64,000 nt of DNA, taken from Mustelus asterias (Eukaryota). Under the pieces are notes generated by a model. The model did no database searches. It had not been told where the DNA came from and saw only the letters and a program-made list of their open reading frames with translations. Of the stretch, positions 6,773 to 64,000 are shown piece after piece; the first letter of the stretch is position 1, and each line of letters opens with the position of its first letter. Position numbers and translations under genes: made by a program. The stretch lies in NCBI RefSeq assembly GCF_964213995.1, contig NC_135813.1, positions 97,526,001 through 97,590,000 of the forward strand, given 5' to 3'.

Positions 6773-7549
6773 TATCAGATAGGGAGAGGACTGGGGGCGG
6801 GGGCGGGGGGGTGAATGAGAGTGTGCTGGAAGCAGCAGGAAAGCTGGGAACGCCACCGAGAGGAGGTCCTTTCTACACATAAAATATTTAAAACAATATT
6901 TAGATAGAAACTGCATGAATAGGAGAAGGCTGTTCAAACTTGCCACTGCAAGGCACAATGTTGAAGGACTAAAAGATTTCCGGGTAAAATCCTTGATATT
7001 TGGCCTGACTGGAAGTAGTTGCAGGTTGAGGGTTCGAGGATCCATGTCTGATCTGTTCTTCCTTTGAATTCAGCTCCTCCACAGAGCATGGGTTTTGGGA
7101 ATTTGCTCTTTAATTCCTTTGAAAATTAAGAGCTGATTTTATATATTTTCGGCCTAAACCAGAAGGTGTACAGGAACTCTCCCCTTCCTCCAAATTCATT
7201 CCAACAACTTCAACCAAAGGCAGATGGTGGCCGAAGGGCAGCACAGACCTCTAATTATTCTAAATATTGACCCTGACTTTCTATTGGTTCTGACAACCTC
7301 CTGTTGTAACCTCAGCAAAGACAAGTGGAGATCCCGGAGAAACAGCAGAAACTGACACTTCTCCAAAGAGTGTACCATTCCAGACACTGGTTTTTAATAA
7401 GGGGGAATCCCAGATTAATCTGCGGAGTGTTTGTCATTGGAGTGGGTGGACATTGAGACAGGGAGGGAAGCTATTTTTAAATTTATTTCAATTACAATCC
7501 TCCCATGTCCTCCAAGCATTAACAGTTGCCATGCTCCCCAGTCACTCAC

Positions 7550-7725
7550 CTGTTTGTACCAATATTTCAGCAGGCGAATCAAGTCTTTCAGTTTTGGTTT
7601 ACACTCCTTCACAAAGTTCCTCTGAAGCTCAGTAAAACAGGCAGAAAATTCTCCACATTCAGCTTTATTTTCGTTTACTAACTGGATTAGCTTGAGATGG
7701 GCTCCATGTGCATTGCCTGGTCCCT
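7550..7725 (-). CDS. OASL: OASL exon 3
   Basis: (E)GPGNAHGAHLKLIQLVNENKAECGEFSACFTELQRNFVKECKPKLKDLIRLLKYWYKQ contains the OAS motifs CFTELQRNF and LIRLxKxWY. tgcag acceptor, GTGAGT donor, 176 nt. Confidence 0.95.
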
Positions 7726-7779
7726 CTGCAAGGAATGAAATGATTAATGAGCAACAGAAAATGCACCATTTGTGGTTAT

Positions 7780-8475
7780 CACAAGTGAGCAGTGTATGAG
7801 CTCGCCTACTCTTTGGCTAAATAATCCATTCACCTGCTTACATTTTATGGCTGTTCTGTCAGATCTGTTCCATTTCACAGACTGCTCCGACCCCTTCCTC
7901 TCCCCTCCAGAGCTATAATAGGGTTCCATCGGTCTTCACTTTCTACCCCACCAGCGTTTCTATTCGATGGATTATCCTCCATCATTCTCACCACCTTCAG
8001 CGTGATGCCATTACCAAAAGGCATCTTCCCTTCTCTTTGTACAGCATTTGAAAAGGACCGATTCATCTGTGACACCCTGGTCCATTCCACTCCCTCAACA
8101 GCTCCCTCCCTTTCCCACAGCACCTTTCCATGCAAGCACAGGAGATACAATTCCTGGCCTTTTACTTCTTCCCTTCTCACTGTCGAAAGCCTCAAAGATT
8201 CCTTCCAGGTGAAATACTATGTCCTTTACTGTATTCACTGCTCATGTTATGGTCTCCTTCACATTGGAGAGGCCAAATCACCTCCCATCAGTCTGCAAGA
8301 TAGCTCCAAGTTTGCCCTCACCTGACATTCCCCGCCATGCGCCCACTCTGACCTCTACCCTGACCTTGACCATTGTTCCAGTGAAGCTCAATGTGTGTTT
8401 GAGGAACATCTCATCTCATCTTTCGATCAGTCCCCAGACAGCCTTCTGGACTCAACATCAAGTTCAACAATTTCA
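7780..8475 (+). mobile_element. Degenerate Penelope-like retroelement fragment (GIY-YIG endonuclease region)
   Basis: ORF 8002-8325: ...DTLVHS...TFPCKHRRYNSW...VLYCIHCSCYGLLHIGEAK resembles the Penelope Cys linker plus GIY-YIG motif. Confidence 0.65.
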
Positions 8476-8886
8476 GATCATAATCTCTGGACAATTGGGA
8501 TTCGCTTAGTGGTAAAAACTGTGCAGCATGGACAAGTTGGGCCGAAGGGTCTGTTTCCATGCTGTAAACCTCTATGTATACTAACCTTTCTGACAACATC
8601 ATCTTATTACCAAACTGTGTTAATGCCAGTGCTAAAATATTGTCAATCATAAACTCCTCAGTGTCTGTGACTGGCTGTTGCGATCTGATCCACTCAGAAA
8701 ACACTTTGAAAATACTCTCCCTCAACAACGATAACTCTAATAACTAAATATGGATCTCAATGACTGTATCATCTTAACTAAGAATAGGATACGTGGCAAA
8801 GGAGAGACAATAACACCCACTTGATGAGTAGCAGAGGCTCACATAGATTTAAAATTGAACTTGAGCTTTAGTGATTTAGTTCTTAC

Positions 8887-9184
8887 CTATTGCGTCAAAG
8901 CTTGGCAAAATATCGAAATCCACTCTGTCCGAACGTTTCTTTCTTGATTGGATTGAAAAGTTGAGGGATTTGGGTGGGGTGTCGTTCGGTGGAATATTGA
9001 TAGTGACATCACTGATGTCAAAAGCGATGCTTCTTGCACACTCTGTCAACACTTTCTGAATTTCTTTCAGAATCTCACACCTGTTGCTTCTCAGCTCCTG
9101 GAAACTCAGGAAACAGTTGAGGAAGACAACCAGATCCGCATCGGAACCGTTTCTTAAAGCTGTCCCTTTGCCTGATGACCCTCC
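8887..9184 (-). CDS. OASL: OASL exon 2 (nucleotidyltransferase core)
   Basis: Manual translation: GGSSGKGTALRNGSDADLVVFLNCFLSFQELRSNRCEILKEIQKVLTECARSIAFDISDVTINIPPNDTPPKSLNFSIQSRKKRSDRVDFDILPSFDAI. P-loop, DAD and third Asp (FDILP) intact. cag acceptor, GTAAG donor, 298 nt. Confidence 0.95.
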
Positions 9185-9414
9185 CTGAGGAGCAAGAAGA
9201 AGAAACTAACAGTTGTGATGATTCCAGTGACCGGTGACCATTTCAGAAATATTGAAGAGTCATTGAAACCAAATCTCTGTATCCCGGCTTCTGTCTCTTT
9301 CTTGCAGCCATTTCCTTCTCATTTTGTACCCTCTTGACCCCTTTTTGTGAAGGTGCTGACTTATGATGAGTCCGAGATCCACAAGCCCACTCATTAACCA
9401 TGCTTCGGAATTCG

Positions 9415-13676: not shown

Positions 13677-16600
13677 GGGCGTGATTTTATCATTAGGTTG
13701 TGCCCATCTTTGGGCGCGAAAACTTGGTAAAGTCGGGCGTGAGGTGAGTAGCGCGATCCATGCCCGCCTCCACGGCAGTTCCCCCTTTACCAAGGCCCGA
13801 AAATGGACGTGATTGGGACTGTGCCCGAAAAGGGTGTGACAGCCATTTGCATGTATATAGAATCATAGAATCCTACAGTGTAGAAAGAGGCCATTCGGCC
13901 CATCGAGTCTGCACCAACCACAATCCCACCCAGGCTCTATCCACATATCCCTACATATTTTACCCACTAAGCCCTCTAACCTATGCATCCCGGGACACTA
14001 GGGGGCAATTGAGAATGGTCAATCAACCTAGCCCGCACATCTTTGGACTGTGGGAGGAAACCCACGCAGACACGAGGAGAATGTGCAAACCCCACACAGA
14101 CAGTGACTCGAGCCGGGAATCGAACCCAGGTCCCTGGAGCTGTGAAGCAGCAGTGCTAACCACTGTGCTACCGTGCCGCCCAAATTGACTTAATGGGCTG
14201 CACGCCCAACTTTACTGGCACCTCCCCTTTACCACCGCGTTTGCCAATCCAGAATCGGCGTGGAACAGATATGCTCCATTAAAGTCTGATTCAGGCACTC
14301 CATCAGTGAGGGTTAGTGAGGAGGTAAGTGTGTAGAGTCCGACAGCTCTCTGCTGCTTATGGGTGTCCTTTTATTGCAGCCATTTTCTTTCTCGGGCCGG
14401 TGGCGGCCCTGCGAGGGGGGGGGGGGGGGGCGTGGGGAACTATTGCTCAGCAGGGTCTCTGATGTCCAGCTTGCAGCACAGACCCGGGTCTCAGCACTGA
14501 CCTCAGGTCTTGTGGTGCTGCTGGGTCCTAGTGCACTCAGCACTCTTCCAGCTGAAGGATGTGCACAAAGCCCTTGGAAATTGCACTGCTGCAGCCTCTC
14601 AATGTTTCAAGGAGCTGTGACTTTGGGGAGTATTTGGCTGGGGAAATTGGGGGGTATGGACAGTGACTGTTGATAGGCTAGGGGTAAGCAGCATTCCTTA
14701 ACTTCTACATGGGTTCCTCTCCATCTCCAACACCCCCCTTCAGAGTGACGAGATGTCTTTTGCGATGCAACCAATCGATCTTGCTGTTCCTTTGGTTGCT
14801 GCTGGAGCTGAGGAGCAGGAGGAAGAATTGCAGCACAGGAGACCTGGGCCTTACCACTTCCACATGTAGAAGGAGATGATCACCAGAGGCAGGACCTGGA
14901 CGCCATTCACACAGAGGGGAGGGGCACAGGAGAAGGACGGCAGTTCTGTGCACGAGTGTCATTTGAACAGATGTCGGACAGCGTGTGCCGCCGACATCTC
15001 CCGTCCGAAAGGAGACAGTGCAACACCTGTGCAGCCTGTTGCAGGACCTGGCACCTAGGGGCGGGGGCGGGGGTGGGGGGGGCACAGAAGCAGGTCACAG
15101 AAGCCATGTATGACCGGGCAGGGGAGGTGGCGCGTGGGTGATATGGGTTACCCGCTTCGGACATGGCTGATGAAGCCTGTGTGGAGGCCTGTGACTGAGG
15201 TGGAGACCTGCTATAATGAGGCCCATGTAGCCACCCACGCGATAGTGGAGAGGTACATTGCGCTCCTCAAAATGCGATTGCGGTGCCTGGACCGCTCTGG
15301 CAGGGCCCAACAATACAGCCCTGTGACCTCATCCCGCATTGTGGTCGTGTGCTGTGCCTTACACAACCTGGCTCTGCAGAGAGGTGACTATTCGAGGAGG
15401 AGGACGTGGAGGCTAACCAGCCGGGCATCGCTGGGGAGGATGACCAGCAGGAGGAGGAAGAGGAGGCAGAGGAAGAGTACGCCGAGGAACACAGCCCTGG
15501 CGCTGGAGGGCTGGCAGCTCAGATGAGGCATGTGAGGGTGGCAAGGGAGGCCCCTGATCACAAGGCGGTTCAGTCGCTAGGGGCTTGTGTCTGTGGGCTC
15601 CATCCGCCCCACAAAGTCTTTCTATCTTCTGCAACATCATCACAACAGAGTGGTGGGCCTGGGTACGCTGTGTTAGTGAGTTTCTTTGGCAGGCAGGAGC
15701 GTAATGACGACTCCATGATGAAAATGCCCTGGTGCAAACTAGTCTGATTCCTACCTGAGCTCCACATGCACGCTGGCATCTGGGCCCTCATCTGTGTGGT
15801 TGGTAAGGGATCTGAAACCCTCTTACAGGCCCCTGGGGAGGGTGGGGTGGGGGGATGGGAGCGAATCGCTCGTGGGTTCTGGGGAACCAATGGCTTCCTT
15901 TTCTCAGTGACACAGCATTGAGGGGCCTCCCCAACTGACATCAACATGAGGCATCACTCCGGCAATCATCAATGAAAGAGGATTCCTGTTCGAGACAAAT
16001 CTGAGACGAATGAATCACAGGTGAGTGGTGAAAAAACATTTAATAATTGCAATAAAGGTGTTTAAATAATAAATTCTAACATAAAAACTTGTGAACGGAA
16101 AATGTTAAGGTGCTTAAAGATCTATTTAACTAGTGCAGTCCTTCATCCTGCCATCTCAGTGCAACTACAACTTCCTAACCTTACGTGGCCTACCACTAAG
16201 TCTCAGTGTCTCGCCAGAATGTACATCGGAGGTGGAGGGGGCCAGCTGCCTACCTCGCCCCGTTGTCTGTGATGCGTGTGGCGGGCGTCCTCTGAAGGCC
16301 CTGGACCTTGAGGGCCCTGGCCAGCTTCCAGGTATGTGGGACATTTCCATGACACCCCCTTAATCCCACTGGCCCTGAGGTGCCCCGGTGTCAGGAAGGG
16401 AGGAGTCAGAAGATGTAGCCGCAGCCACAGTCTCCTGGCTGGAAGGCCCCGGCATGGGCTCGAGCCCTTCCTCTTCCCTTGGGGTTCCGGTGGGCCCCTG
16501 GATCACTCCATGGGATGGCGGTGCTTCCGCAGTGAGCTCCAGAAGCTCCAGCGTCACCTGGCCCTGCCAATCCTGGAGGACTACCTGAGTCCTATGGAAG

Positions 16601-21190: not shown

Positions 21191-21838
21191 TGGATTTGTC
21201 CTTTCAGTTCAGGAATCTCAGTATTCTAATTCTAGATTTTAAAATGGGTTGTTTTGAATCTCAATGCCACTCACAATTTAAATAAGTTCTTAATATTCTC
21301 TGATCGGGGACAGTATCATTTCAAACACCCCAGGGCCATTTTTCTCCAATTACACTCATTCCCTTAGACTCCATTGATGATCTGCTGAAATGATAATGGA
21401 AAATCAAGGGAAACCCCACAGAATTCCCGAGCCCAGGTTTTTTTTAACCTCCCCAGTAACCCAAACCCACACCCACAGACGGTAGCACATTACACCGCTC
21501 GCTGAGAGCCACTTCAGGCAGATGCCAGTATTGAAGCTCAGAAGACAGACACTCCAGTTTCTGAATATGTTAATAATAGACAGGATAGATCAACAAAGAC
21601 ACATCCAAATGCAAATGGAAGAACAGATTGGGAATCTGCTGCTTATTTTTCCAGGCTGGGAGGAAGGAGTTTGTGCAGATTGGTTTCTTTGGGATTCAGA
21701 TGTTGAGTAGAAAGCCAGACTTTAAGATTATTGTCGATGAGATTTACACAACAGTTACTCCTCACACTTTGCAGCCTGTGCCTGGGATAATGTGTAGTGT
21801 GTGTTAAATTCTGACAAGAGGCTGTTCTCACTGCTGTC

Positions 21839-22143
21839 ATCGCTTCTCGGCCTTTTGGCTAAGATCAAGTGTGGTCTGCTGATGCTGCACTTGGTTGAGG
21901 TCATTGGGTTGCATTTAAGCTTCATTTTCATATGAAGCAATTTTGTAAAGCGGCATCTCGGCCTTTTGGCTAAGATGCAAATGAGATTAAGCCTTGGAGG
22001 AGGTGCAATGCCTACTCCAATCAGCTTGGCTCATGTAGATCAGGCCCAAGACAGGAGTGGAGGCCCTGTCTTGTCAGCTTGGATCGGGAATGTCTCAACT
22101 TGTTGAGACTCTGAATTGGACTTGATTTGATTGAATTGGAAAA
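21839..22143 (+). mobile_element. U2 snRNA-headed repeat, copy 1 (candidate U2-SINE)
   Basis: Starts with U2 5' sequence ATCGCTTCTCGGCCTTTTGGCTAAGATCAAGTGT; second U2 fragment at 21956-21976; flanked by a 20-bp direct repeat at 21806-21825 and 22155-22174. Confidence 0.8.
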
Positions 22144-22206
22144 GTATTTTTTAAAAATTCTGACAAGAGGCTGTCTGACTACAGTGTCTCCCCCAGCAAT
22201 GCTGTC

Positions 22207-22464
22207 ATGCTGATTGTCACCAATGAGGAGCGCATGCAGATATTCCTGAAGAATGAGAAGGGGAAAACATCTACATATGACGTTCTTCCCTTGGAGTCTG
22301 TTCAGGATTTTAAAGCACACGTACAGCTGCAGGAAGGTGTTACAACCAGACAGCAGAGCCTGGTATATGAGGGGAAAGAGCTGGAGGATGGCTGCACACT
22401 CGCCGATTACAATATTCAGCCAAAGGGAACCATCTTCATTACACTACGTCTACGAGGTGGTTAA
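22207..22464 (+). pseudogene. Truncated ISG15-like paralog (C-terminal UBL only, LRLRGG intact)
   Basis: 85-aa ORF homologous to the second half of the 155-aa genes; homology starts at DKRLSDY (~22162) and most of UBL1 is missing. Confidence 0.7.
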
Positions 22465-22511
22465 CATGCACTTGCAGCGGTTAAGATGATCCCTAGATAT
22501 TACAGAAATGA

Positions 22512-22823
22512 ATCGCTTCTTGGCCTTTTGGCTAAGATCAAGTGTAGTATGGACAGGCTGCGCTTGGTTGAGGTCATTAGGTTACACTTTAGCTTCATTT
22601 GAAGCAATTTTTAAAAGCGGCATCTCGGCCTTTTGGCTAAGGTGCAAATGAGATCAAGCCTTGGAGGAGGTGCAATGCCTACTCCAATCAGCTTGGATCA
22701 TGTAGATCAGGCCCAGGACAGGAGGTGAGAGCCCTGTCTTGTCAGCTTGGATCGGGAATGTCTCAACTTGTTGAGACTCTGAATTGGACTTGATTTGATT
22801 GAATTGGATAAATAAATAAATAA
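22512..22823 (+). mobile_element. U2 snRNA-headed repeat, copy 2
   Basis: 38/39 match to vertebrate U2 nt 1-39 (22512-22550); same body as 21839-22143; (TAAA)n tail. Confidence 0.8.
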
Positions 22824-23071
22824 TCATTTATAGTGTATTAATTGATCTTTTTTTCATACATTCCTGTTCTCTCATGTGCAGTTTGTAAGAGACCTGGATT
22901 GCACAGTCACTGACTTAATGATGCTTTTGGCTCTTATTACTAACCTTCTTGCATTCTCAGCTAGGAAAAGATGCTGGTTTAAGCCACTGAACATGATTTT
23001 TACAAGTTACAGCAACTTAATTAACAACATAGGAGCAATCAGGAAACCAGCGAGGTAATGTGTCCAATTCT

Positions 23072-29549: not shown

Positions 29550-30017
29550 ATGAGACTCCAGGTGAAGTTTATGACCGGTGAGATTGTTGAACTTGAGGTC
29601 AACCCTTCCATCCAAGTCTCGGCTCTCAAGAAGATGATCTATGAAAAAACCAAGGTGCCCCATTTCCGTCAGCGCCTGATGGTTCAAAACGGAAACACGG
29701 TGGTTTTGAGAGATGACAAGCGGCTGTCTGACTACAGTGTCTCCCCCAGCAATGCTGTCATGCTGATTGTCACCAATGAGGAGCGCATGCAGATATTCCT
29801 GAAGAATGAGAAGGGGAAAATATCTACATATGACGTTCTTCCCTCGGAGTCTGTTCAGGATTTTAAAGCACGCGTACAGCGACAGGAGCGTGTCCCAACC
29901 GATCAGCAGCGTCTGATGTACGAGGGGAAACAGCTGGAGGATGGCCGCACACTCGCTGACTACAATATTCAGTCTGAAAGCACCATCTTCCTTATGCTAC
30001 GTCTGCGAGGTGGTTAA
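29550..30017 (+). CDS. ISG15: ISG15-like di-ubiquitin protein, copy 1 (155 aa)
   Basis: Two UBL domains, C-terminal LRLRGG directly followed by stop, single coding exon, ISRE promoter, AATAAA at 30939 and 31126. Confidence 0.9.
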
Positions 30018-30269: not shown

Positions 30270-30616
30270 GGGTGGCACGGTAGCACAGCGGTTAGCACTG
30301 CTGCTTCACAGCTCCAGGGACCTGGGTTTGATTCCCAGCTTGGGTCACTGTGTGGAGTTTGCACATTCCCCTTGTGTCTGTGTGGCTTTCCTCTGGGTGC
30401 TCCGGTTTCCTCCCACAGTGCAAAGATGTGCGGGTTAGGTTGATTGGCCATGCTAAAAATTGCCCTTAATGTCCTGAGATGCGTAGGGTAGAGGGATTAG
30501 TGGGTAAATGTGTAGGGATATGGGGGTAGGGCCGGGGTGGGATTGTGGTCGGTGCAGACTCGATGGGCCGAATGGCCTCTTTCTGTACTGTAGGGTTTCT
30601 ATGATTTCTATTCTAT
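30270..30616 (+). mobile_element. V-SINE in 3'UTR of ISG15-like copy 1
   Basis: Full V-SINE flanked by AAAGCA direct repeat; empty site at ~61568 in copy 3. Confidence 0.85.
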
Positions 30617-35000: not shown

Positions 35001-37888
35001 TGTCAGCTGAGGAGGCTCCTCAATGTTGTGTCACTGAGAAAAGGAAGTCATTGGTTCCCCAGAACCCACGGGCGATCCCCTCCCATCCCCGACCCCACCC
35101 ACCCAGGGCCCTGTAAGTGGGTTTCAGATCCCTTACCCACTACACAGACGTGGGCCCAGATGCCAGCGTGTATGCGGAGCTCAGATTGAAGTCAGACTAG
35201 TTTGCACCAGGGCATCATCACAATGGTGCTGAACGAGTCATCATCACCCTCCTGCCGGCCAAAGAAACTCGCTAACACAGCGTACCCAGGCCCACCACTC
35301 TGGTGTGACGGTGTTGCAGGAGACAGAATGAATTTTGGGGTGGGGGGGATGGAACCCACAGACACAAGCCCCTAGCGACTGAACCGCCTGGTGTTCAGGG
35401 ACTCCATTGCTGCCCTCGCATGCCTCATTTGAGCTGCCAACCCTACAGCGCCTGGGTGGTGTTCCAAGGAGTGCTCTTCCTCCTCTTCCTCCTCCTCCTG
35501 CTGGTCATCCTCCCTAGCGACAGCCAGCTGGTCAGCCTTCACATCCTCCTCATCCTCCTCCTCCAATAGGTCACCTCTCTGCAGAGCCAGGTTGTGCAAG
35601 GCACAGCACACGACCACAATGCGGGATGAGATCACAGGGCTGTATTGTTGGGCCCTGCCAGAGCGGCCCAGGCACCGGAATCGCATTTTGAGGAGCCCAA
35701 TGTACCTCTCCACTATCGCGTGGGTGGCTACATGGGCCTCATTATGGCGGGTCTCCACCTCAGTCACAGGCCTCCACACAGGCTTCATCAGCCATGTCCA
35801 AAGTGGGTAACCCATATCACCCACGAGCCACCCCCGCAGCCTGGGTTCCTCCTCAAATGCCTCAGGGAGGTCAGAGCTCCTGACAATGAAGCTGTCATGC
35901 ACGCTGCCTGGGTGCCTTACGCAGACGTGCATCATGTTCATATTATGGTCACACACTTGTTGAACATTCAGGGAGTGGAACCTCTTCCTGTTGATGAATC
36001 TTTGTGGTTTCTATAGGGGGGCCGGGGGGGCCTTGAGGGTGATGTGGGTGCAGTCGATGGCCCCCTGAACGTTAGGCATCCCCGCAATGGCTGCAAACCC
36101 TGCCCCGGGCTTCCTGATGGCCTGGTCCAGGTTGAATTTGATGTGCTGCCCTGCCCGGGCACACAGGCCTTCTGTGACCTGCTTGACACAGGTGTGCACA
36201 ACTGACTGGGAAATGTCACAGACATCTCCGCAGGGGGTCAGGAAGGAGCCAGTCGCATAAAAGAGCAGCCGAGAATTTGACAGCCACCAAGAGTGGGTGC
36301 ACCCCCCCCGCCCCTCCACCCCCCCAACCTCTCCATCCCACCCCCACACCCTGACCACCCCCACCCTCCCCCCACCCCCCCAACTCCCCCACCCTGACCA
36401 CCCCTACCCTCCCCCACACCCCCCCACCCCCACCTCCCCCCAACTCCCCTCCCACTCCCCACCCTCCCTCACTGCCCCTAGGTGGCAGGTCCTGCAACAG
36501 GTGACACAGGTGTTGCACTGTCTCCTATCGGAGTGGGAGATGTCGACGGCACACGCTTTCCGACATCTATTCAAATGACACTTGTGCACGGAACTGCCAG
36601 GGTCTCTGCTCCCTCCTTCTCCTTCAACCCCCCCTCTGAGTCAATGGCGGCCACCTCCTGCCTCTGGGGTTGTCTCCCTCTACTACTGCAAGTGGCAAGG
36701 CCCAGGCCTCCGGTGCTGCAATTCTTCCTCCAGCTCCTCCTCCTCAGCTCCAGCAGCAACCAAAAGAACAGCAAGATCGACCGGTTGCATCGCAAAAGCC
36801 ATCTCGTCACTCTGAAGGGTGAGGGTGGCGGGGGGTGGGGCGGGGGGGGGGCGGGGGTGGTGTGGTTGGAGATGGAGAGGAACACATGTAGAGGTTGAGG
36901 AACGCTGCTTATCCCTAGCCTATCAACAGTTACTGTCCATACCCCCCAATTCCCCCAGCCACATGCTCCCCACAATCAGAGCTCCCCCAATTCCCCCAGC
37001 CACATACTCCCCAAAATCACAGCCCACCCCCCAATTCCCCCCATCACACACTCCCCACAATCACAGCCCCCTCAATTCCCCCAGCCACATGCTCCCCACA
37101 ATCACAGCCCCCTCAATTGCCCAAGCCTCATGCTCCCCAATATCACAGCTCCTTGAAAAGTTGAGAAGCTGCAGCAGTGCAATTTACAAGGGCTTTGTGC
37201 CCACCCTTCAACTGGAAGAGTGCTGAGTGCACTAGGACCCAGCAGCACCACGAGACCCGAGGTCCGTGCTGAGACACGGATCCGTGCTGCAAGCTGGACA
37301 TCGGAGAACCTGCTGAGCAACAGCCCCCCCAACCCCTCCCCCCACACTCGCAGAGTCGCCACCAGCCTGAGAAAGAAAATGGCCGCAACAAAAGGACACA
37401 CATGAGCAGCAGAGAGCTGTCGGACGCTACACACTTACCTCCTCACTAACCCTCACTGATGGAGCGCCTGAATCAGACTTTTATGGAGCATGTCTGTTTC
37501 ACACCGCTTCCGGATTGTCGAACGCAGCGGTAAAGGGGCAAGTGCCGGTAAAGTTGGGTGTGCGTCAGTCAATTTAAATGCAGCAAATGCATTTAGAAGA
37601 AACATAGAAAACATAGAAAAACAGGCCCTTCGGCCCCACAAGTTGTGTCGAACATATCCCTACCTTTTAGGCCTCCTATAACTCTACATCCTATTAATAG
37701 AAACATACACATATTTAAATTGCCGTCGCGCCCGTTTCAGGCATGGTCCCAATCGCGTGCATTTTTGGGCCTTGGTAAAGGGGGAACTGGCGCGGAGGTG
37801 GGTGCGGATCGCGCTACTCGCCTCCCGCCTGACTTTACCAAATTTTCACGCCCGAAAACGGGCGCAACCTGATGGTAAAATCGGGCCC
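32021..37888 (-). mobile_element. PIF/Harbinger DNA transposon copy 2 (near full length, ~5.9 kb)
   Basis: TIRs GGCCCTATTTTACCA ... TGGTAAAATCGGGCCC followed by TAA. Transposase on - (GAIDCTH...PGSVHDSFI...GDMGYP...[15 protein letters not shown]...CCALHN, ~35372-36600, frameshifted). Spliced Myb/SANT gene on + (WEAVTTSVSA...KQCWKKVNDL, donor at 32701, then EKTDHN..KTGGG). Confidence 0.92.
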
Positions 37889-43633: not shown

Positions 43634-44101
43634 ATGAGACTCCAGGTGAAGTTTTTGACCGGTGAGATTATTGAACTTGAGGTCGACCCTTCCATCCAAA
43701 TCTCGGCTCTCAAGAAGATGATCTATGAAAAAACCAAGGTGCCCCATTTCCGTCAGCGCCTGATGGTTCAAAACGGAAACACGGTGGTTTTGAGAGATGA
43801 CAAGCGGCTGTCTGACTACAGTGTCTCTCCCAGCAATGCTGTCATGCTGATTGTCACCAATGAGGAGCGCATGCAGATATTCCTGAAGAATGAGAAGGGG
43901 AAAACATCTACATATAACGTTCTTCTCTCGGAGTCTGTTCAGGATTTTAAAGCATGCGTACAGCGACAGGAGCGTGTCCCAACCAATCAGCAGCGTCTGA
44001 TATACGAGGGGAAACAGCTGGAGGATGGCTACACACTCGCTGACTACAATATTCAGTCTGAAAGCACCATCTTCCTTGTGCTACGTCTGCGAGGTGGTTA
44101 A
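43634..44101 (+). CDS. ISG15: ISG15-like di-ubiquitin protein, copy 2 (155 aa)
   Basis: Intact ORF ending LVLRLRGG*; 12 amino-acid differences from copy 1. Confidence 0.9.
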
Positions 44102-46104: not shown

Positions 46105-49100
46105 GGCCGTATTTTACCATTTTGATTCTAAATACTGGGTGGACTTGAAACTGGGAGTGTTTCAGATCCGACTTTTAGACCCGTTCTCAGGCGCCCCCAT
46201 ACACACACTGCCTGAAAAAATATCAGCGAGTCCAAATCATACTACACAAACCTGTGGATGGGGCTTAACGCACCCGACACCCTGCAGCTCCGATCGGCGC
46301 CTCCAACTGCGCATGCGCAGAAAAAAAATGATAGAATAACCTCCCCTGCCACATCCCTCCTGGGCTGGATAATGCCTCCCCCTGGTGCCAGCAGACATTG
46401 TCCCACCCCCCACAACATTACTGACTGCCTTATGCCCCCACTCCCCACCACCCAGACTGATCATGGGCCCCACCACCTTCCCCCCACCGATCTCGGACAG
46501 TGTGGCAGCGGACCCCCCCTCCCCCTCCACTGATCTCAGGCAGAGTAGCAGCGGACCCCCCTTCCCCCTCACTCATCTCAGGCAAACAGATCCACCCTCC
46601 TCCCTCCACCCTACAAATATCAGGCAGAGCGATCCCCCTCACCCCCACCCCTGACCCTCCCGTACGAGGTCCCCATCTCCTCCAAACTCCGATGGCTGTG
46701 TGACACCTCCCTCTCTCTCCCCTGTCCCCAATCATTGAGGCACTGATCCACCCCCTCATCAGCACATCTGCAAGTGCTCACTTGCCTTCCACTCAATGCT
46801 AACAAGCAAACTGCAAGTAACTTGCTGGAATGCTCTGCCAAACTGCCTGCAGCTGATCTGCCCTCACAAGGGGCAGCTCCATAAAAACTCAAGAAAGGGC
46901 AGGCAGGCAGTGCAGGACAATGTATGCACGACCAGCGCCCCATTTTCCTGAGGGTAATTTGGGCAGACTACTGGATGCAGCAGAGGTGAGGCGGGACACC
47001 CTCTTCCCCCCAGGAGGACACAGACCCAGGGGTTCTGATGGGAATGCAGCCTGGGAGGCAGTCGCTGCCTCGGTCAGTGCCAGGGCCCTGGTCCTCCGAA
47101 CATGGGAAGCAGTGCCAGAAAAAGGTCAATGACCTCATCTGGGCAGCAAGGGTGAGTGTTGAACCCAATTTGCATCTTCCCCCAAATCTCCCCTAGATCC
47201 TCCCATCCCCAGCTCCTGACCCCCAAGCACCTTCTTCCTATCCCCCCCCCCCCCTCCAAGAGCCCCACTGCACTTGCCCTCTAAGAGCCACCACATGACA
47301 CTCTGCACTAGTCACACCATCATTTCTTTCATGGCTCCTTCTGTCTCCACAGGAGAAGACCGACCATAACACCCGTGAGAGGGTGAAGACAGGGGTTGGT
47401 GAGCCAGAGCTCTGGGTCCTCACCCCCTTTGAGGAGCAAGTGGTCCTCCAGGACTGACAGTGCCAGGTAACGCCGGAGCTTCTGGAGCTCACGCCATCCC
47501 ATGTAGTAACCCAGGGGCCCACAGGAACCCCAAGGGAGGAGGAAGGGCTTGAGCCCATGCCAGGGCTTTCCAGCCAGGAGACTGTGGCTGTGGCTACATT
47601 TTCTGACTCCCCCCCCTTCCTGACACTGGGGCATCTCAGTGGCAGCGGGATGAAGAGGGTGTCATGGAAACATCCCAGAATCCTCTTCCATTGATGATTG
47701 CCGGAGTGATGCTTCATGTTGATGTTGGTTGGGGAGGTCCCTCAATGCTGTGTCACTGAAAAAATGAAGCTATTGGTTCCCCAGAACCCACGAGCGATTC
47801 GCTCCTGAACCCCCACCCTCCCCAGGGCCCTGTATGAGGGTTTCAGATCCCTTGCCCTCTATACATTCATGGGCCCAGGTGCCAGAGTGCATGCGGAGCT
47901 CAGATTGAAGTCAGACTAGTTTGCACCAGGGCATCATCATAATGGTGCTTCGCAGGTCGTCATCACCCTCTTGCCTGCCAAAGAAACTAACGAACACAGT
48001 GTACCCATGCCCACCACTCTGGTGTGACGATGTTGTAGAAGATAGAAGGAATTTTGGGGTGGGGGGGATGGAACCAAATGACACAAGCCCCTAGCAACTG
48101 AACCGCCTGGTGATCAGGGGCCTCCCCAGCTGCCCTCGCATGCCTCATTTGAACTGCCAGCCCTCCAGCGCCTGGGTGGTGTTCCCAGGTGTGCTCTTCC
48201 TCTTCTTCTTCCTCCTCCTCTTCTTCCTCCTCCTGCTGGTCATCCTCCCAAGCGATGCCCGGCTGGTTAGCCTCCACATCCTCCTCCTCCTCCTCCAATA
48301 GGTCACCTCTCTGCAGAGTCAGGTTGTGCAAGGCACAGCACACGACCACAATGCGGGATGAGATCACAGGGCTGTATTGTTGGGCCCTGCCAGAGCGGTC
48401 CAGGCACCAGAAACTCATTTTGAGGAGCCCAATGTACCTCTCCACTATCGCGCGGGTAGCTACATGGGCCTCATTATAGCAGGTCTCAGCCTCAGTCACA
48501 GGCCTCCACACAGGCGTCATCAGCCGTGTCTGAAGCGGGTAACCCAAATCACCCAGGAACTACCCCCGCAGCCTGGGGTCCTCCTCAAATGCCTCCGGGA
48601 TGTCAAAGCTCCTGACAATGAAGCTGTCATGCACACTGCCTGGGTGTCTTACGCAGACGTGCATCATGTTGATATTATGGTCACACACTAGCTGATCATT
48701 TAGGGAGTGAAACCCCTTTCCGTTGATGAATCTTCGTGGATTTTGTAGTTGGGCCTTAGGGTGACGTGTGTGCAGTCATTGGCCCCCCGTACGTTAGGCA
48801 TCTCCACAATGGCGGCGAACCTTGCCCCCGGGCTTCCTGATGGGTCTGGTCCAGGTTACATTTGATATGCTGCCCTGTCCGGGCACACAGGGCTTCTGTG
48901 ACCTGCTTGACAAAGGTGTGCACAACTGACTGGGAAATGCCACAGACATCTCCGCTGAGGGTCTGGAAGGAGCCAGTCGCATAAAGGTTCAGAGCAGCCG
49001 TCAATTTGACAGCCACTGAGAATAGGTGCCCCCCCCCCCGCCCCACCACCACGCTCCCCCCCCCCCCCCACCACGCCCCCCCCCCCCCCCCCCCCACCCC

Positions 49101-53684: not shown

Positions 53685-56600
53685 TGATTAGTGTGGGAGA
53701 AATGGGTTTGAATTCATGGGACATTGGCACCAGTATTGGGGAAGAGGGGACCTGTTCCAATGGGACAGTCTTCATCTGAATCGTGCTGGGACCAGAGTCC
53801 TGGCGAATCGTATAACTAGGGCTTAGATTGGCCTTTAAACTAAATAGTGGAGGGGAAGGTTCAGTGGAATGGAGAACTAGAAAATCAAAGTTAAAGGAGA
53901 GGGTGGAAGTGCAGGCTAATGGAAGTGAGGGCTTAGGAGAGGTTAGTAAAGTTTCCACACCACGTATTAGAACAGAAAGTATAGAAGGTGGCAGGAATTT
54001 AACCTCAGGCAGAGCAAAAAAGGTGACAAGTATGAGAAGGGAGGTGGTCAATGCAGGATTGAGGGTGTTGTACCTAAATGTGCGCAGGATACGGAACAAG
54101 GTAAATAAGCTTGTTGCGCACATTGAAATAGTCCGGTACGATGTTGTGGGCATCACAGAGACATGGTTGCAAGGGGATCAGGGCTGGGATCTAAATATCC
54201 AAGGATATTGTCCTATCGGAAGGACAGGCAGATGGGCAAAGGGGGCGGGGTTGCATTGTTAGTAAGGAATGAAGTTGAACCAATAGCAAGAAGTGATATC
54301 GGATCAGAAGGCATAGAATCTCTGTGGGTAGAGTTGAGGAATCTAAAGGTAAAAATACCCTGATGGGAGTTATGTACAGGTCCCCTAGCAGTAGTCAGGA
54401 TGAGGGGCAGAAAATAAATCAGGAGATAGAAAAGGCATATTAAAAAAGGCAATATTACAATAATCATGGGGGACTTCAATATGCAGGTGGACTGGGAAAA
54501 TCAGGTAGGTAGTGGATCCCAAGAAAAGGAATTTGTGGAATGTCTAAGATGTTTTTTTGGAGCAGCTTGTGACAGAGCCTACTAGGGAACAGGCTATTCT
54601 TGATTTGGTGATGTGTAATGAGGCAGACTTGATTAGGGAACTTAAGGTGAAGGAACACTTAGGAAGTAGTGACCACAATATGACAGAATTTACCCTGGAG
54701 GGAGAAGCTGGAATCAGATGTAACGGTATTACAATTAAATAAAGATATCTACAAAGACATGAGGGAGGAGCTGGCCAGAGTTGATTGGAAAGGGAGCCTA
54801 GCAGGGAAGACAGTGGAACAGCAATGGCAGGTGTTATCATAGAATCACAGAAACCCTACAGTACAGAAAGAGGCCATTCGGCCCATCGAGTCTGCAACGA
54901 CCACAATCCCACCCAGGCCCTACCCCCATATCCCTACATATTTTACCCGCTAATCCCTCTAATCTACGCATCCCAGGACACTAAGGGACAATTTTTAACC
55001 TGGCCAATCAACCTAACCCGCACATCTTTGGACTGTGGGAGGAAACCGGAGCACCCGGAGGAAACCCATGCAGACACGGGTTTTTGAGAGTTATTCAGGA
55101 GGCACAACAGAAGTTCATCCCAAGGAGGAGGAAACATGCTAAGGGGAGGATGAGACATCCATGGCTGACGAGGGAAGTGAAGGACAGCATAAAAGCAAAA
55201 GAAAAAGCATATAGAGTGGCAAGGATTAGTGGGAACTCAGAGGATTGGGAAGCCTCTAAAAGCGAGCAGAGGTCAACTAAAAAAGCAATAAGGGGGGAGA
55301 ACATGAAATATGAGTGTAAGCTAGCGAGTAATATAAAAGAAGTTGGAAGAGTTTTTTTTCAATATATAAAAGGTAAGAGAGAGGCAAAAATAGCCATTGG
55401 ACCACTGGAAAATGAGGCTGGAGAAGTAATAATAGGAAACAAAGCAATGGCAGAGGAACTGAATAGTTACTTTGCATCAGTCTTCACGGTGGAAGACACC
55501 AATGGGATACCAGAGCTCCAGGAGAGTCAGGGGGCACAGGTGAGTGTAGTGGCCATCACTAAGGAGAAGGTTCTGGGGAAACTGATAGATCTGAAGGTGG
55601 ATAAACCACCTGGACTGGATGGACTACACCCCAGGGTTCTAAAAGAGATAGCTGAGGAAATTGAGTAGGCATTGGTGGTGATCCTTCAGGAATCACTGGA
55701 GGCAGGGAGGATACCAGAGGACTGGCAAGTACCTAATGTAACACCGCTGTTTAAGAAGGGAGGGAGGCAGTAAGCGGGAAATTATAGGTCAGTTAGCCTG
55801 ACTTCGGTCAATGGCTAGATTTTAGAGTCCATTATTAAAGATGAGATCACAGGGTACTTGGAAGTGCATGATAAAGGAGGACTGAGTCAGCACGGCTTTG
55901 TCAAGGGGAGGTCATGTCTGACAAATCTGTTAGAGTTCTTTGAGGAGGTAACAAGGAAGTTAGATAAAGGAGAATTAGTGGACGTGATTTATTTAGATTT
56001 CCAGAAGGCCTTTGATGAGGTGCCGCATAGGAGACTGTTAAATAAGTTAAGTGCCCATGGTGTTAAGGGTAAGAGCCTGACATGGATAGAGGATTGGCTG
56101 ACTGGCAGAAGACAGAGATTGGGGATAAAGGGATCTTTTTCAGGATGGCAGCCAGTGAATAGTGGTGTGCCTCAGGGGGTCAGTGCTGGGATCACAACTT
56201 TTCACAATATACATTAACGATTTGGAGGAAGGAACTGAAGGCACTGTTGCTACGTTTGCAGATGATACAAAGATATGTAGAGGGACAGGTAGTATCGAGG
56301 AAGCAGGGGGACTGCAGAAGGACTTGGACAGGTTGGGAGAGTGGGCAAAGAAGTGGCAGATGGAATACAATGTGGAAAAGTGTGAGGTTATGCACTTTGG
56401 AAGGAGGAATGGAGGCATAGACTATTTTCTAAATGGGGAAATGATTAGGAAATCAGAAACACAAAGGGACTTGGGAGTCCTTGTTCAAGATTCTCTTAAG
56501 GTTAACGTGCAGGTTCAGTCAGCAGTTAGGAAGGCAAATGCAATGTTAGCATTCATGTCAAGAGGGCTAGAATACAAGAGCAGGGGTGTACTTCTGAGGC

Positions 56601-57175
56601 TGTATAAGGCTCTGGTCAGACCCCATTTGGAGTATTGTGAGTATTGGAGTTTTGGGCCCCATATCTAAGGAAGGATGTGCTGGCCTTGGAATGGGTCCAA
56701 GGGAGGTTCACAAGAATAATCCCTGGAATGAAGAGCTTGTCGTATGAGGAACAGTTGAGGACTCTGGTCTGTACTCGTTGGAGGTTAGAAGGATGAGGGG
56801 GGATCTTATTGAAACTTACAGGATATTGTGAGGCCTGGATAGAGTGGACATGGAGAGGATGTTTCCACTAGTAGGAAAAACTAAAACCAGAGGGCACAAC
56901 CTCAGGCTAAAGGAACGATCCTTTAAAACAGAGATGGAGGAGGAATTTCTTCAGCCAGAGAGTGGTGAATCTGTGGAACTCTTTGCCACAGAAGGCTGTG
57001 GAGGCCAGGTCATTGAGTGTCTTTAAGACAGAGATCGGTAGGTTCTTGATCAATAAGGGGATCAGGGGTTATTGGGAAAGGTAGAAGAATGGGGATGTGA
57101 AAAATATCAGCCATGCTTGAATGGCGGAGCAGACTCGATGGGCCGAGTGGCCTAATTCTGCTCCTATGTCTTATG
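53685..57175 (+). mobile_element. CR1 LINE, ~3.5 kb (end of ORF1 plus decayed endonuclease-RT ORF2)
   Basis: ORF1 end HWHQYWGRGDLFQWDSLHLNRAG, then GITETWL, GSSDHN, QHGFVKGRSCLTNL, YLDFQKAFD, FADDTK and the CR1 tail. Stops and frameshifts present; empty site at ~25950. Confidence 0.93.
54836..55080 (-). mobile_element. V-SINE (5'-truncated) inserted in the CR1
   Basis: Reverse-complement V-domain and tail interrupt ORF2. Confidence 0.85.
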
Positions 57176-60856: not shown

Positions 60857-61324
60857 ATGAGACTCCAGGTGAAGTTTTTGACCGGTGAGATTATTGAACT
60901 TGAGGTCGACCCTTCCATCCAAATCTCGGCTCTCAAGAAGATGATCTATGAAAAAACCAAGGTGCCCCATTTCCGTCAGCGCCTGATGGTTCAAAACGGA
61001 AACACAGTGGTTTTGAGAGATGACAAGCGGCTGTCTGACTACAGTGTCTCTCCCAGCAATGCTGTCATGCTGATTGTCACCAATGAGGAGCGCATGCAGA
61101 TATTCCTGAAGAATGAGAAGGGGAAAACATCTACATATGATGTTCTTCCCACGGAGTCTGTTCAGGATTTTAAAGCACGCGTACAGCGACAGGAGCGTGT
61201 CCCAACCGATCAGCAGCGTCTGATGTACGAGGGGAAACAGCTGGAGGATGGCCGCACACTCGCTGACTACAATATTCAGTCTGAAAGCACCATCTTTCTT
61301 ATGCTACGTCTGCGAGGTGGTTAA
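60857..61324 (+). CDS. ISG15: ISG15-like di-ubiquitin protein, copy 3 (155 aa)
   Basis: Intact ORF ending LRLRGG*. Confidence 0.9.
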
Positions 61325-63478: not shown

Positions 63479-64000
63479 GGTAGATGAGGACAGTGCAGTT
63501 GATGTTGTCTACATGGACTTTAGCAAGGCCTTTGACAAGGCACCGCATGGTAGGTTGTAGCATAAGGTTAAATCTCATGGGATCCGGGGTGAGGTATCTA
63601 AATGGATACAAAATTGGCTTCTTGACAGAAGCCTGAGGGTGGTTGTAGAGAATTGTTTTCCAAACTGGAGGCCTGTGACCAGTGGTATGCCTCAGGGATC
63701 AGTGCTGGGTCCACTGTTATTTGTCTTTTATATTAATGATTTGGATGAGAATATAGGAGGCATGGTTAGTAAGTTTGCAGATGACACTAAGATTGGTGGT
63801 ATAGTGGATAGTGAAGAAAGTTATCTCCAATTGCAACGAGATCTTGATCAATTGGGCCAGTGGGCTGACGAATGGCAGATGGAGTTTAATTTAGACAAAT
63901 GTGAGGTGATGCATTTTGGTAGGTTGAACCAGGTCAGGACCTGCTCAGTTAATGGTAGGGCATTGGGGATTACAGAACAAAGAGATCGAGGGGTACATGT
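63478..64000 (+). mobile_element. CR1 LINE RT fragment
   Basis: VDVVYMDFSKAFDK...PQGSVLGP...FADDTK. Confidence 0.9.

Follow-up and report, generated by a model that had tools for sequence, protein, structure and literature searches.

A candidate U2 snRNA-headed, SINEU-like retroposon with a predicted self-pairing head at an ISG15-like locus of the shark Mustelus asterias

The window analyzed here is a 64,000-nucleotide stretch of the Mustelus asterias genome (NCBI RefSeq assembly GCF_964213995.1, contig NC_135813.1, positions 97,526,001–97,590,000, forward strand); all coordinates below are counted from its first letter. Three intact genes with two ubiquitin domains, 93–96% identical to each other, are located at 29550–30017, 43634–44101 and 60857–61324 on segmental duplications of 14–17 kb. 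We take these genes to be ISG15-like, judging by their pair of ubiquitin domains and terminal LRLRGG; the intact paralog protein is 86% identical to a protein of Carcharodon carcharias and 84% identical to one of Scyliorhinus torazame, which the sources call “polyubiquitin-like”. An OASL-like gene on the minus strand adjoins the cluster, with Pfam matches to Nucleotidyltransferase (2–346), OAS1_C (7418–7816) and ubiquitin (8879–9205). The window also holds several classes of repeats: DDE_Tnp_4 transposase fragments (15059–15523, 35375–36010 and 47990–48559) in three related GC-rich repeats of 3–4 kb, which are presumably Harbinger-like; fragments of LINE reverse transcriptase (55819–56665 and 63561–63998); and a common SINE-like repeat of ~340 nt with 13 hits (30270–30611 and 12 other places), which served as a control below. 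We assume that the common repeat is HE1-like, HE1 being a chondrichthyan SINE.

At lower coordinates than the intact genes lies an ISG15-like gene remnant, with a copy of a U2 snRNA-headed element on either side. The two copies occupy 21839–22154 (copy 1) and 22512–22823 (copy 2) on the plus strand, each ~310 bp long, and are 90.6% identical over 309 alignment columns (21839–22146 against 22512–22814), which bears out the original prediction of two related copies at this place. The features of the locus are as follows, with hairpins numbered H1 to H6 in the predicted fold:

21806–21825, plus strand: left-hand repeat of the 20-bp target-site duplication at copy 1, with TT just before it (exact repeat)
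21826–21838, plus strand: 13 extra nt between the left repeat and U2 nt 1 in copy 1 (junction comparison)
21839–21875, plus strand: U2 head of copy 1, U2 nt 1–37 with A35G (35/37 against the Rfam consensus)
21884–21911, plus strand: antisense arm of copy 1, predicted to pair with head nt 10–37 in hairpin H1 (14 Watson-Crick and 10 G·U pairs)
21919–21938, plus strand: small hairpin H2 of copy 1, loop 6 nt longer than that of copy 2 (predicted fold)
21953–21978, plus strand: H3 of copy 1, a second U2 stem-loop I (U2 nt 7–27) with a new outer stem (predicted fold, U2 match)
21981–22034, plus strand: H4 of copy 1, one of two duplicate modules, containing a 1x3 internal loop and, in its 5' strand, a resemblance to U2 nt 24–31 (predicted fold)
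22037–22085, plus strand: H5 of copy 1, second copy of the H4 module (predicted fold)
22092–22109, plus strand: H6 of copy 1, a 7-bp stem and 4-nt loop without differences from copy 2, a candidate stem for 3' recognition (predicted fold)
22110–22139 and 22140–22154, plus strand: 3' end of copy 1 in common with copy 2, and its 15-nt A/T tail (sequence)
22155–22174, plus strand: right copy of the target duplication of copy 1, its last 14 nt being coding sequence of the ISG15-like remnant (exact repeat)
22161–22464, plus strand: ISG15-like remnant, the 3' two-thirds of a two-ubiquitin-domain gene ending in LRLRGG, between the copies (paralog and domain comparison)
22512–22550, plus strand: U2 head of copy 2, U2 nt 1–39 with C10T (37/39 against the Rfam consensus)
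22557–22584, plus strand: antisense arm of copy 2, predicted to pair with head nt 10–37 (15 Watson-Crick and 9 G·U pairs)
22592–22605 and 22620–22645, plus strand: H2 and H3 (second U2 stem-loop I) of copy 2 (predicted fold)
22648–22701 and 22704–22753, plus strand: duplicated modules H4 and H5 of copy 2 (predicted fold)
22760–22777, plus strand: H6 of copy 2 (predicted fold)
22808–22823, plus strand: (TAAA)n tail of copy 2 (sequence)

The first ubiquitin domain of the remnant is missing or unrecognizable, and its reading frame remains uninterrupted up to LRLRGG, giving 85 aa if counted from the ATG at 22207 and 76 aa from 22234. Relative to the three intact paralogs, the remnant is a mosaic: identity is 98% for the first 158 bp and 80% thereafter, with a switch at ~22319 (the first 158 bp carry 3 differences relative to the paralog, the following 147 bp carry 29), and pN/pS is about 0.5 in the diverged part. 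The remnant may represent a ubiquitin-like gene with a single domain, or else a pseudogene that underwent conversion. Its stop codon lies 47 bp before the start of copy 2.

Copies 1 and 2 are spaced 370 bp apart in the same orientation, their flanks differ and share nothing, and a word-7 BLASTN search of the 64-kb window returned no third copy. Two random points in 64 kb would fall this close in about 2% of cases, so that either a target preference or luck is needed to account for such spacing between copies that seem to belong to distinct subfamilies. The ~310-bp element is non-coding and falls below the 500 bp of the SINEU class, the snRNA-headed SINEs of crocodilians; Pfam gave no match in the two long frames overlapping copy 1, and no reverse transcriptase (RT) or endonuclease (EN) domain in the element region.

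Both copies begin exactly at U2 nt 1, as had been claimed. The claim that the match extends to about nt 39 holds for copy 2, but in copy 1 the match reaches only nt 37. The branch-point-pairing GTAGTA is present in the head of copy 2, as noted originally, and is altered by A35G in copy 1. As judged by Rfam U2 bit scores of 52.2 (copy 2) and 45.2 (copy 1), copy 2 exceeds the U2 threshold, with 42.3 of its 52.2 bits coming from the head alone (E 4.5e-8). The second U2 fragment that had been described was recovered in both copies (21956–21976 and 22623–22641), ~110 nt into the element, and corresponds to stem-loop I (nt 7–25/27). The 3' part of U2, from nt 39 onward, was not found by Rfam after either copy. 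That the element is a full-length U2 gene in diverged form was considered and rejected: although the Rfam alignment spans all 190 nt, most of the score derives from the head, the H4-to-tail part has no U2 match, the firm match is confined to the head and falls short of stem II, the Sm site and stem-loops III–IV, and no site like a proximal sequence element (PSE) lies upstream. For the H4-to-tail part, the best Rfam hit has an E value of 4.5, with no convincing family; that the body contains a known RNA, such as a ribozyme or snoRNA, was rejected as well, Rfam offering no convincing match (other hits E 1.3–9.3).

The 70–80 nt that follow the head had been described as non-U2 sequence. This description fails, since the stretch begins with an arm complementary to the head: element positions 46–73 pair with U2 nt 10–37 at 24 of 28 positions without a gap. 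Shuffled arms reached 24 pairs in 1 and 4 of 20000 trials, and in the whole window only the two arms do so, the heads' own reverse complements aside. The head is near-identical to U2 while the arm departs from the perfect complement, and 9 of 13 and 10 of 14 of these departures are A>G or C>T, yielding G·U pairs; H1 should therefore form on the sense RNA only. Calculated folding of the first 79 nt agrees with this asymmetry (z −5.07 sense, −0.77 antisense). Whole copies fold far better than shuffled sequences (z −5.04 and −4.49), with a strand asymmetry equalled by 8 and 2 of 97 background windows. Pair probabilities in the predicted ensemble are mostly 0.8–1.0, and native U2 stem-loop I reaches at most 0.016. 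In U2 snRNA, this region of the head pairs with the branch point and with U6. By the model, then, H1 forms at the expense of native U2 stem-loop I and buries the region that pairs with the branch point and U6, and the sense RNA would fold as a chain of hairpins in which head nt 10–37 are locked by the arm. This element, highly double-stranded in its predicted fold, sits in what is likely an interferon-response locus.

Downstream of H3, modules H4 and H5 align to each other with a score of 42, against a shuffle mean of 7 and none of 2000 shuffles as high, and the 5' strands of both resemble U2 nt 24–31. Much of the body (the antisense arm, the second stem-loop I and the nt 24–31 repeats) thus appears to be U2-related. 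The original prediction of a non-autonomous U2/retrotransposon chimera is upheld in that the element is short, non-coding, U2-headed and retroposon-like, but not in its account of the body, which does not appear plainly retrotransposon-derived. The hairpin proposed near the 3' end, with 8 bp and a TT loop, is present in both copies but folds as 7 bp with a 4-nt loop (H6), and the 3' part with H6 alone is not unusually stable (z −0.93). The region 22119–22133 at the 3' end resembles antisense U2 nt 24–33 and can, in an alternative fold, pair with the 5' strand of H4 (21980–21993); the same holds for copy 2.

The 20–21 substitutions between the copies were analyzed relative to the predicted structure. 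The fold was predicted from one copy alone, the substitutions of the other copy were applied, and the broken pairs were counted against random placement. With 21 substitutions, 1 and 0 pairs are broken in the two directions where 8.4 and 6.8 are expected (1 and 0 of 5000 randomizations); in a second alignment, 2 and 0 are broken against 8.6 and 7.5 expected (0/3000 each). The same test was run 22 times on controls, with 12 comparisons between copies of the common SINE-like repeat (four copies) and 10 between paralogous stretches; every one scored between 40 and 3000 of 3000. When only the stem changes are re-placed, within stems, the result is 272 and 192 of 20000, and with refolding energy as the measure it is 2 and 13 of 600. 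Taken by itself, the scarcity of substitutions in stems is a weak signal (286 and 344 of 5000), and a covariation shuffle (226/500) is uninformative with two rows. At the level of individual pairs, there is one double compensatory change, C10–G73 to U–A, and six single changes keep pairing; in the H1 loop, 5 of 8 bases differ between the copies while the stem is kept. CpG sites hold 2 of the 21 substitutions, and the copies agree throughout the final 77 nt ahead of the tail. The copies therefore come from separate source genes, between which the fold has been kept. Most of the differences probably arose in source genes under selection for RNA folding, with little decay after insertion. It is also consistent with the shared register of head and arm, together with the compensatory change, that head and body were inherited together. 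As far as two copies can tell, the element has transposed as a unit from master copies rather than arisen as independent chimeras. The view that the copies are separate insertions is strengthened accordingly by the differing flanks, the target-site duplication at copy 1 and the structure-preserving differences.

The direct repeat reported around copy 1 is exact over 20 bp, and is the sole exact 20-mer pair spaced 250–450 bp apart in the window outside two tandem-repeat arrays. The junction reads TT/AAAT, like an L1-type nick site; a TT/AAAA pattern is named for LINE and SINE targets in the available text of PMC5322556. The 13 extra nt at the 5' junction, together with U2 nt 1–2, match the target at 22187–22208, 13–34 bp past the right repeat, in a gapped alignment, and a repeat comparison gives 11/12 matches there; they may thus reflect an original duplication of greater length, a jump between templates or conversion of the right copy at a later time. 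The AT-rich or (TAAA)n tails anticipated for the element are there, as a 15-nt A/T run with six consecutive T in copy 1 and as (TAAA)n in copy 2. No target duplication was detected at copy 2. The flanks of copy 2 at 22506–22511 and 22824–22829, when joined, form a perfect 12-bp palindrome by eye, AAATGA/TCATTT. The three intact ISG15-like paralogs do not carry the element, and the flanks of the copies cannot be aligned to them above shuffled sequences (shuffle counts of 1000: 921 right and 909 left of copy 2, 166 and 432 upstream of copy 1; 104/1000 with another scoring).

An snRNA promoter in place at the copies was considered and rejected. One octamer lies at 21609–21616, position −230 of copy 1, and ~230 bp upstream is the usual distance of the snRNA distal element; another lies inside copy 1 at 21975–21982. 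We regard these octamers as chance occurrences because the window contains 7 where 3.15 are expected, copy 2 lacks the internal one at the matching place, and no PSE-like match to the consensus as commonly known was found upstream of either copy. The missing PSE is expected at both sites if these are inserted copies and not masters; a master was not seen either. No tRNA was called in the element, A and B boxes being judged by eye, and T4 occurs at element nt 15–18 together with a further T4–T5 run. A partner LINE was sought in the window by shared ends and by domains: no LINE remnant shares an end with the element, and a Pfam scan of 135 of the 171 long frames gave three RT fragments, far from the element and sharing nothing with it. 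Two body motifs gave 0 hits in the ten Utopia supplement files of PMC4640811, in which the U2 motif was found.

The element shares with the SINEU class a U2 head in a short, non-coding and heritable unit. SINEU-1, like SINEU-3, is described as short (<500 bp) and non-coding, with a U2 5' head, internal oligo-T, an A-rich 3' end and variable target-site alteration, and several SINEU-1 subfamilies, like the shark element, contain more than one U2 fragment (PMC4494074, in the text available). In the same source, crocodilian SINEU prefers Mariner-N4_AMi as a target; the shark copies lie beside an ISG15-like gene remnant, whose coding sequence forms the 3' flank of copy 1, and the SINEU descriptions at hand include no antisense arm pairing with the head, such as the shark element has. 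We call the element SINEU-like and do not assign it to SINEU-1, -2 or -3. According to the accessible text of Kojima 2015 (PMC4494074), no SINEU was detected outside crocodilians, and how promoterless snRNA-headed elements are transcribed was left open; later literature, as far as its text is available, repeats the crocodilian restriction or adds nothing. We found no report of a U2-headed element or SINEU in sharks in the openly accessible literature searched; the element may already be catalogued in Repbase or Dfam.

The end of the head invites comparison with retrotransposons that insert into U2 genes. Keno (Tx1 clade) and Utopia leave U2 nt 1–38 upstream of their insertions, and the shark head ends at nt 37–39; the U2 flank downstream of Utopia starts at nt 39, and reptile Utopia has 20-bp target duplications, the same length as that of copy 1 (PMC4640811, section 6 and other accessible parts, in which sharks are not mentioned). 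Keno and Utopia are autonomous and protein-coding with U2 nt 39 onward as 3' flank, whereas the shark copies are 310 bp, non-coding and outside U2 genes. We therefore rejected identity with either, there being neither EN/RT coding nor a 3' flank of U2 nt 39 onward. The U2 piece of SINEU-3, at 32 bp, also ends in the 30s, so an end at nt 38/39 is not specific (PMC4494074, text as available). U2 pseudogenes and U2-LINE chimeric retrocopies resemble the copies in being 5'-complete and 3'-truncated U2 with a target duplication, but lack the shared, structured 260-nt body that covaries with the head. The 5' end of R2 elements is known to fold together with target-derived sequence. By analogy of workings only, R2 borrows the promoter of its target RNA gene, 28S rRNA (PMC4494074, in part); for the shark element, Rfam gives no ribozyme family match, U2 is the RNA targeted, and the head stays in place instead of being cleaved off. 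The chondrichthyan SINEs SacSINE1, CmiSINEs and HE1 are similar in size, but have tRNA-related heads and L2-type tails. In the accessible text of PMC5499810, a paper on chondrichthyan SINEs, “snRNA” does not occur. The common ~340-nt repeat of the window shares no significant sequence with the U2-headed element.

Based on these observations, we consider the copies to be, on balance, two young insertions of a short, non-autonomous, U2-headed retroposon that is SINEU-like and probably arose independently in sharks; that its family is structure-selected appears quite likely. An element of much the same workings, but classed as a non-autonomous LINE and not as SINEU, would result from internal deletion of a U2-headed Tx1/Keno-type LINE, with the head and hairpins as 5' UTR and the last 60–80 nt as 3' end. 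Some crocodilian Tx1 elements carry U2 heads, that of Tx1-11_Crp being nearly identical to those of SINEU-1C/E/H (PMC4494074, as far as available), the shark head ends at the Keno site, and the last 77 nt agree between copies as a LINE-recognized tail would. We find this origin unlikely, if not negligibly so, since no LINE in the window shares either end, the three RT-bearing frames have nothing in common with the element, and U2-related repeats explain much of the body. Strong structural selection among the sources and the exact U2 +1 start would also be expected of a small structured RNA, specific to sharks and made by a modified U2 gene, that serves the host in some cellular function for which it is selected and that LINEs copy no more than passively, as they do snRNA pseudogenes, and Rfam aligns a U-rich stretch between H2 and H3 to the Sm site. 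This stretch differs between the copies, however, the Rfam U2 score is mostly that of the head, the H4-to-tail part has no convincing U2 or Rfam match, and sources ~7% apart would suit subfamilies better than one conserved gene; a host RNA is accordingly improbable.

The proximity of the copies, their shared orientation and their being alone in the window could instead reflect local duplication or gene conversion of one U2-containing pseudogene, with neutral decay of both copies, at a locus where the break in paralog identity of the remnant at ~22319 testifies to recombination. Neutral decay predicts ~7–9 broken pairs where 0–2 are seen, which argues for structure-selected sources and not for one decayed local duplicate; with 5 of 8 loop positions changed above an intact stem, flanks that share nothing and few CpG changes, we regard such a duplication as very improbable. 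U2 chimeras and tailless U2 retrocopies have been reported in mammals (PMC4494074 and PMC5322556, in part), and 5' additions occurred repeatedly in SINEU-2 (PMC4494074, same text), so that two template switches between a U2 fragment and another RNA during LINE reverse transcription could be envisaged in place of a heritable U2-headed element. The arm complementary to the head, in the same register in both copies and with a compensatory head-arm change, largely refutes independent chimeras, to which we give hardly any credence.

For the SINEU-like retroposon that we favor, a source copy may lie within a U2 gene or behind one, at nt 38/39, where Keno and Utopia also insert. Driven by the upstream snRNA promoter, RNA polymerase II would begin at U2 +1 and continue into the element; the antisense arm would hide the branch-point- and U6-pairing region and so keep the cell from treating the chimeric RNA as U2; an L1/Tx1-type LINE would reverse-transcribe the RNA from the A-rich tail into new sites; and the new copies at these target sites would be without a promoter. 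We infer polymerase II transcription from a U2 promoter because snRNA genes have no known internal promoter, T runs disfavor polymerase III (both points after PMC4494074, as available), the copies start at +1 and the heads end at nt 37–39. Of the parts of this scheme, a Tx1/L1 partner LINE is somewhat favored, and a master driven by a U2 promoter at the Keno site is plausible but doubtful. The full picture, a shark retroposon living off the U2 locus, with masters at the Keno/Utopia site, a U2 promoter, a G·U-rich self-masking arm and hairpins duplicated from U2 nt 24–31, is tentative and rather unlikely to hold in every part. It predicts masters inside U2 genes, capped transcripts from U2 +1 and a hidden branch-point region.

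Since copy 2 scores above the Rfam U2 threshold, annotations of shark genomes may include elements of this kind among their U2 genes. If the proposal is correct, no snRNA-headed retroposon outside crocodilians precedes it in the literature searched, and it would answer, directly and testably, how SINEs without a promoter come to be transcribed and tolerated. Should the shark element prove to be a young family, the snRNA-headed design would have arisen more than once.
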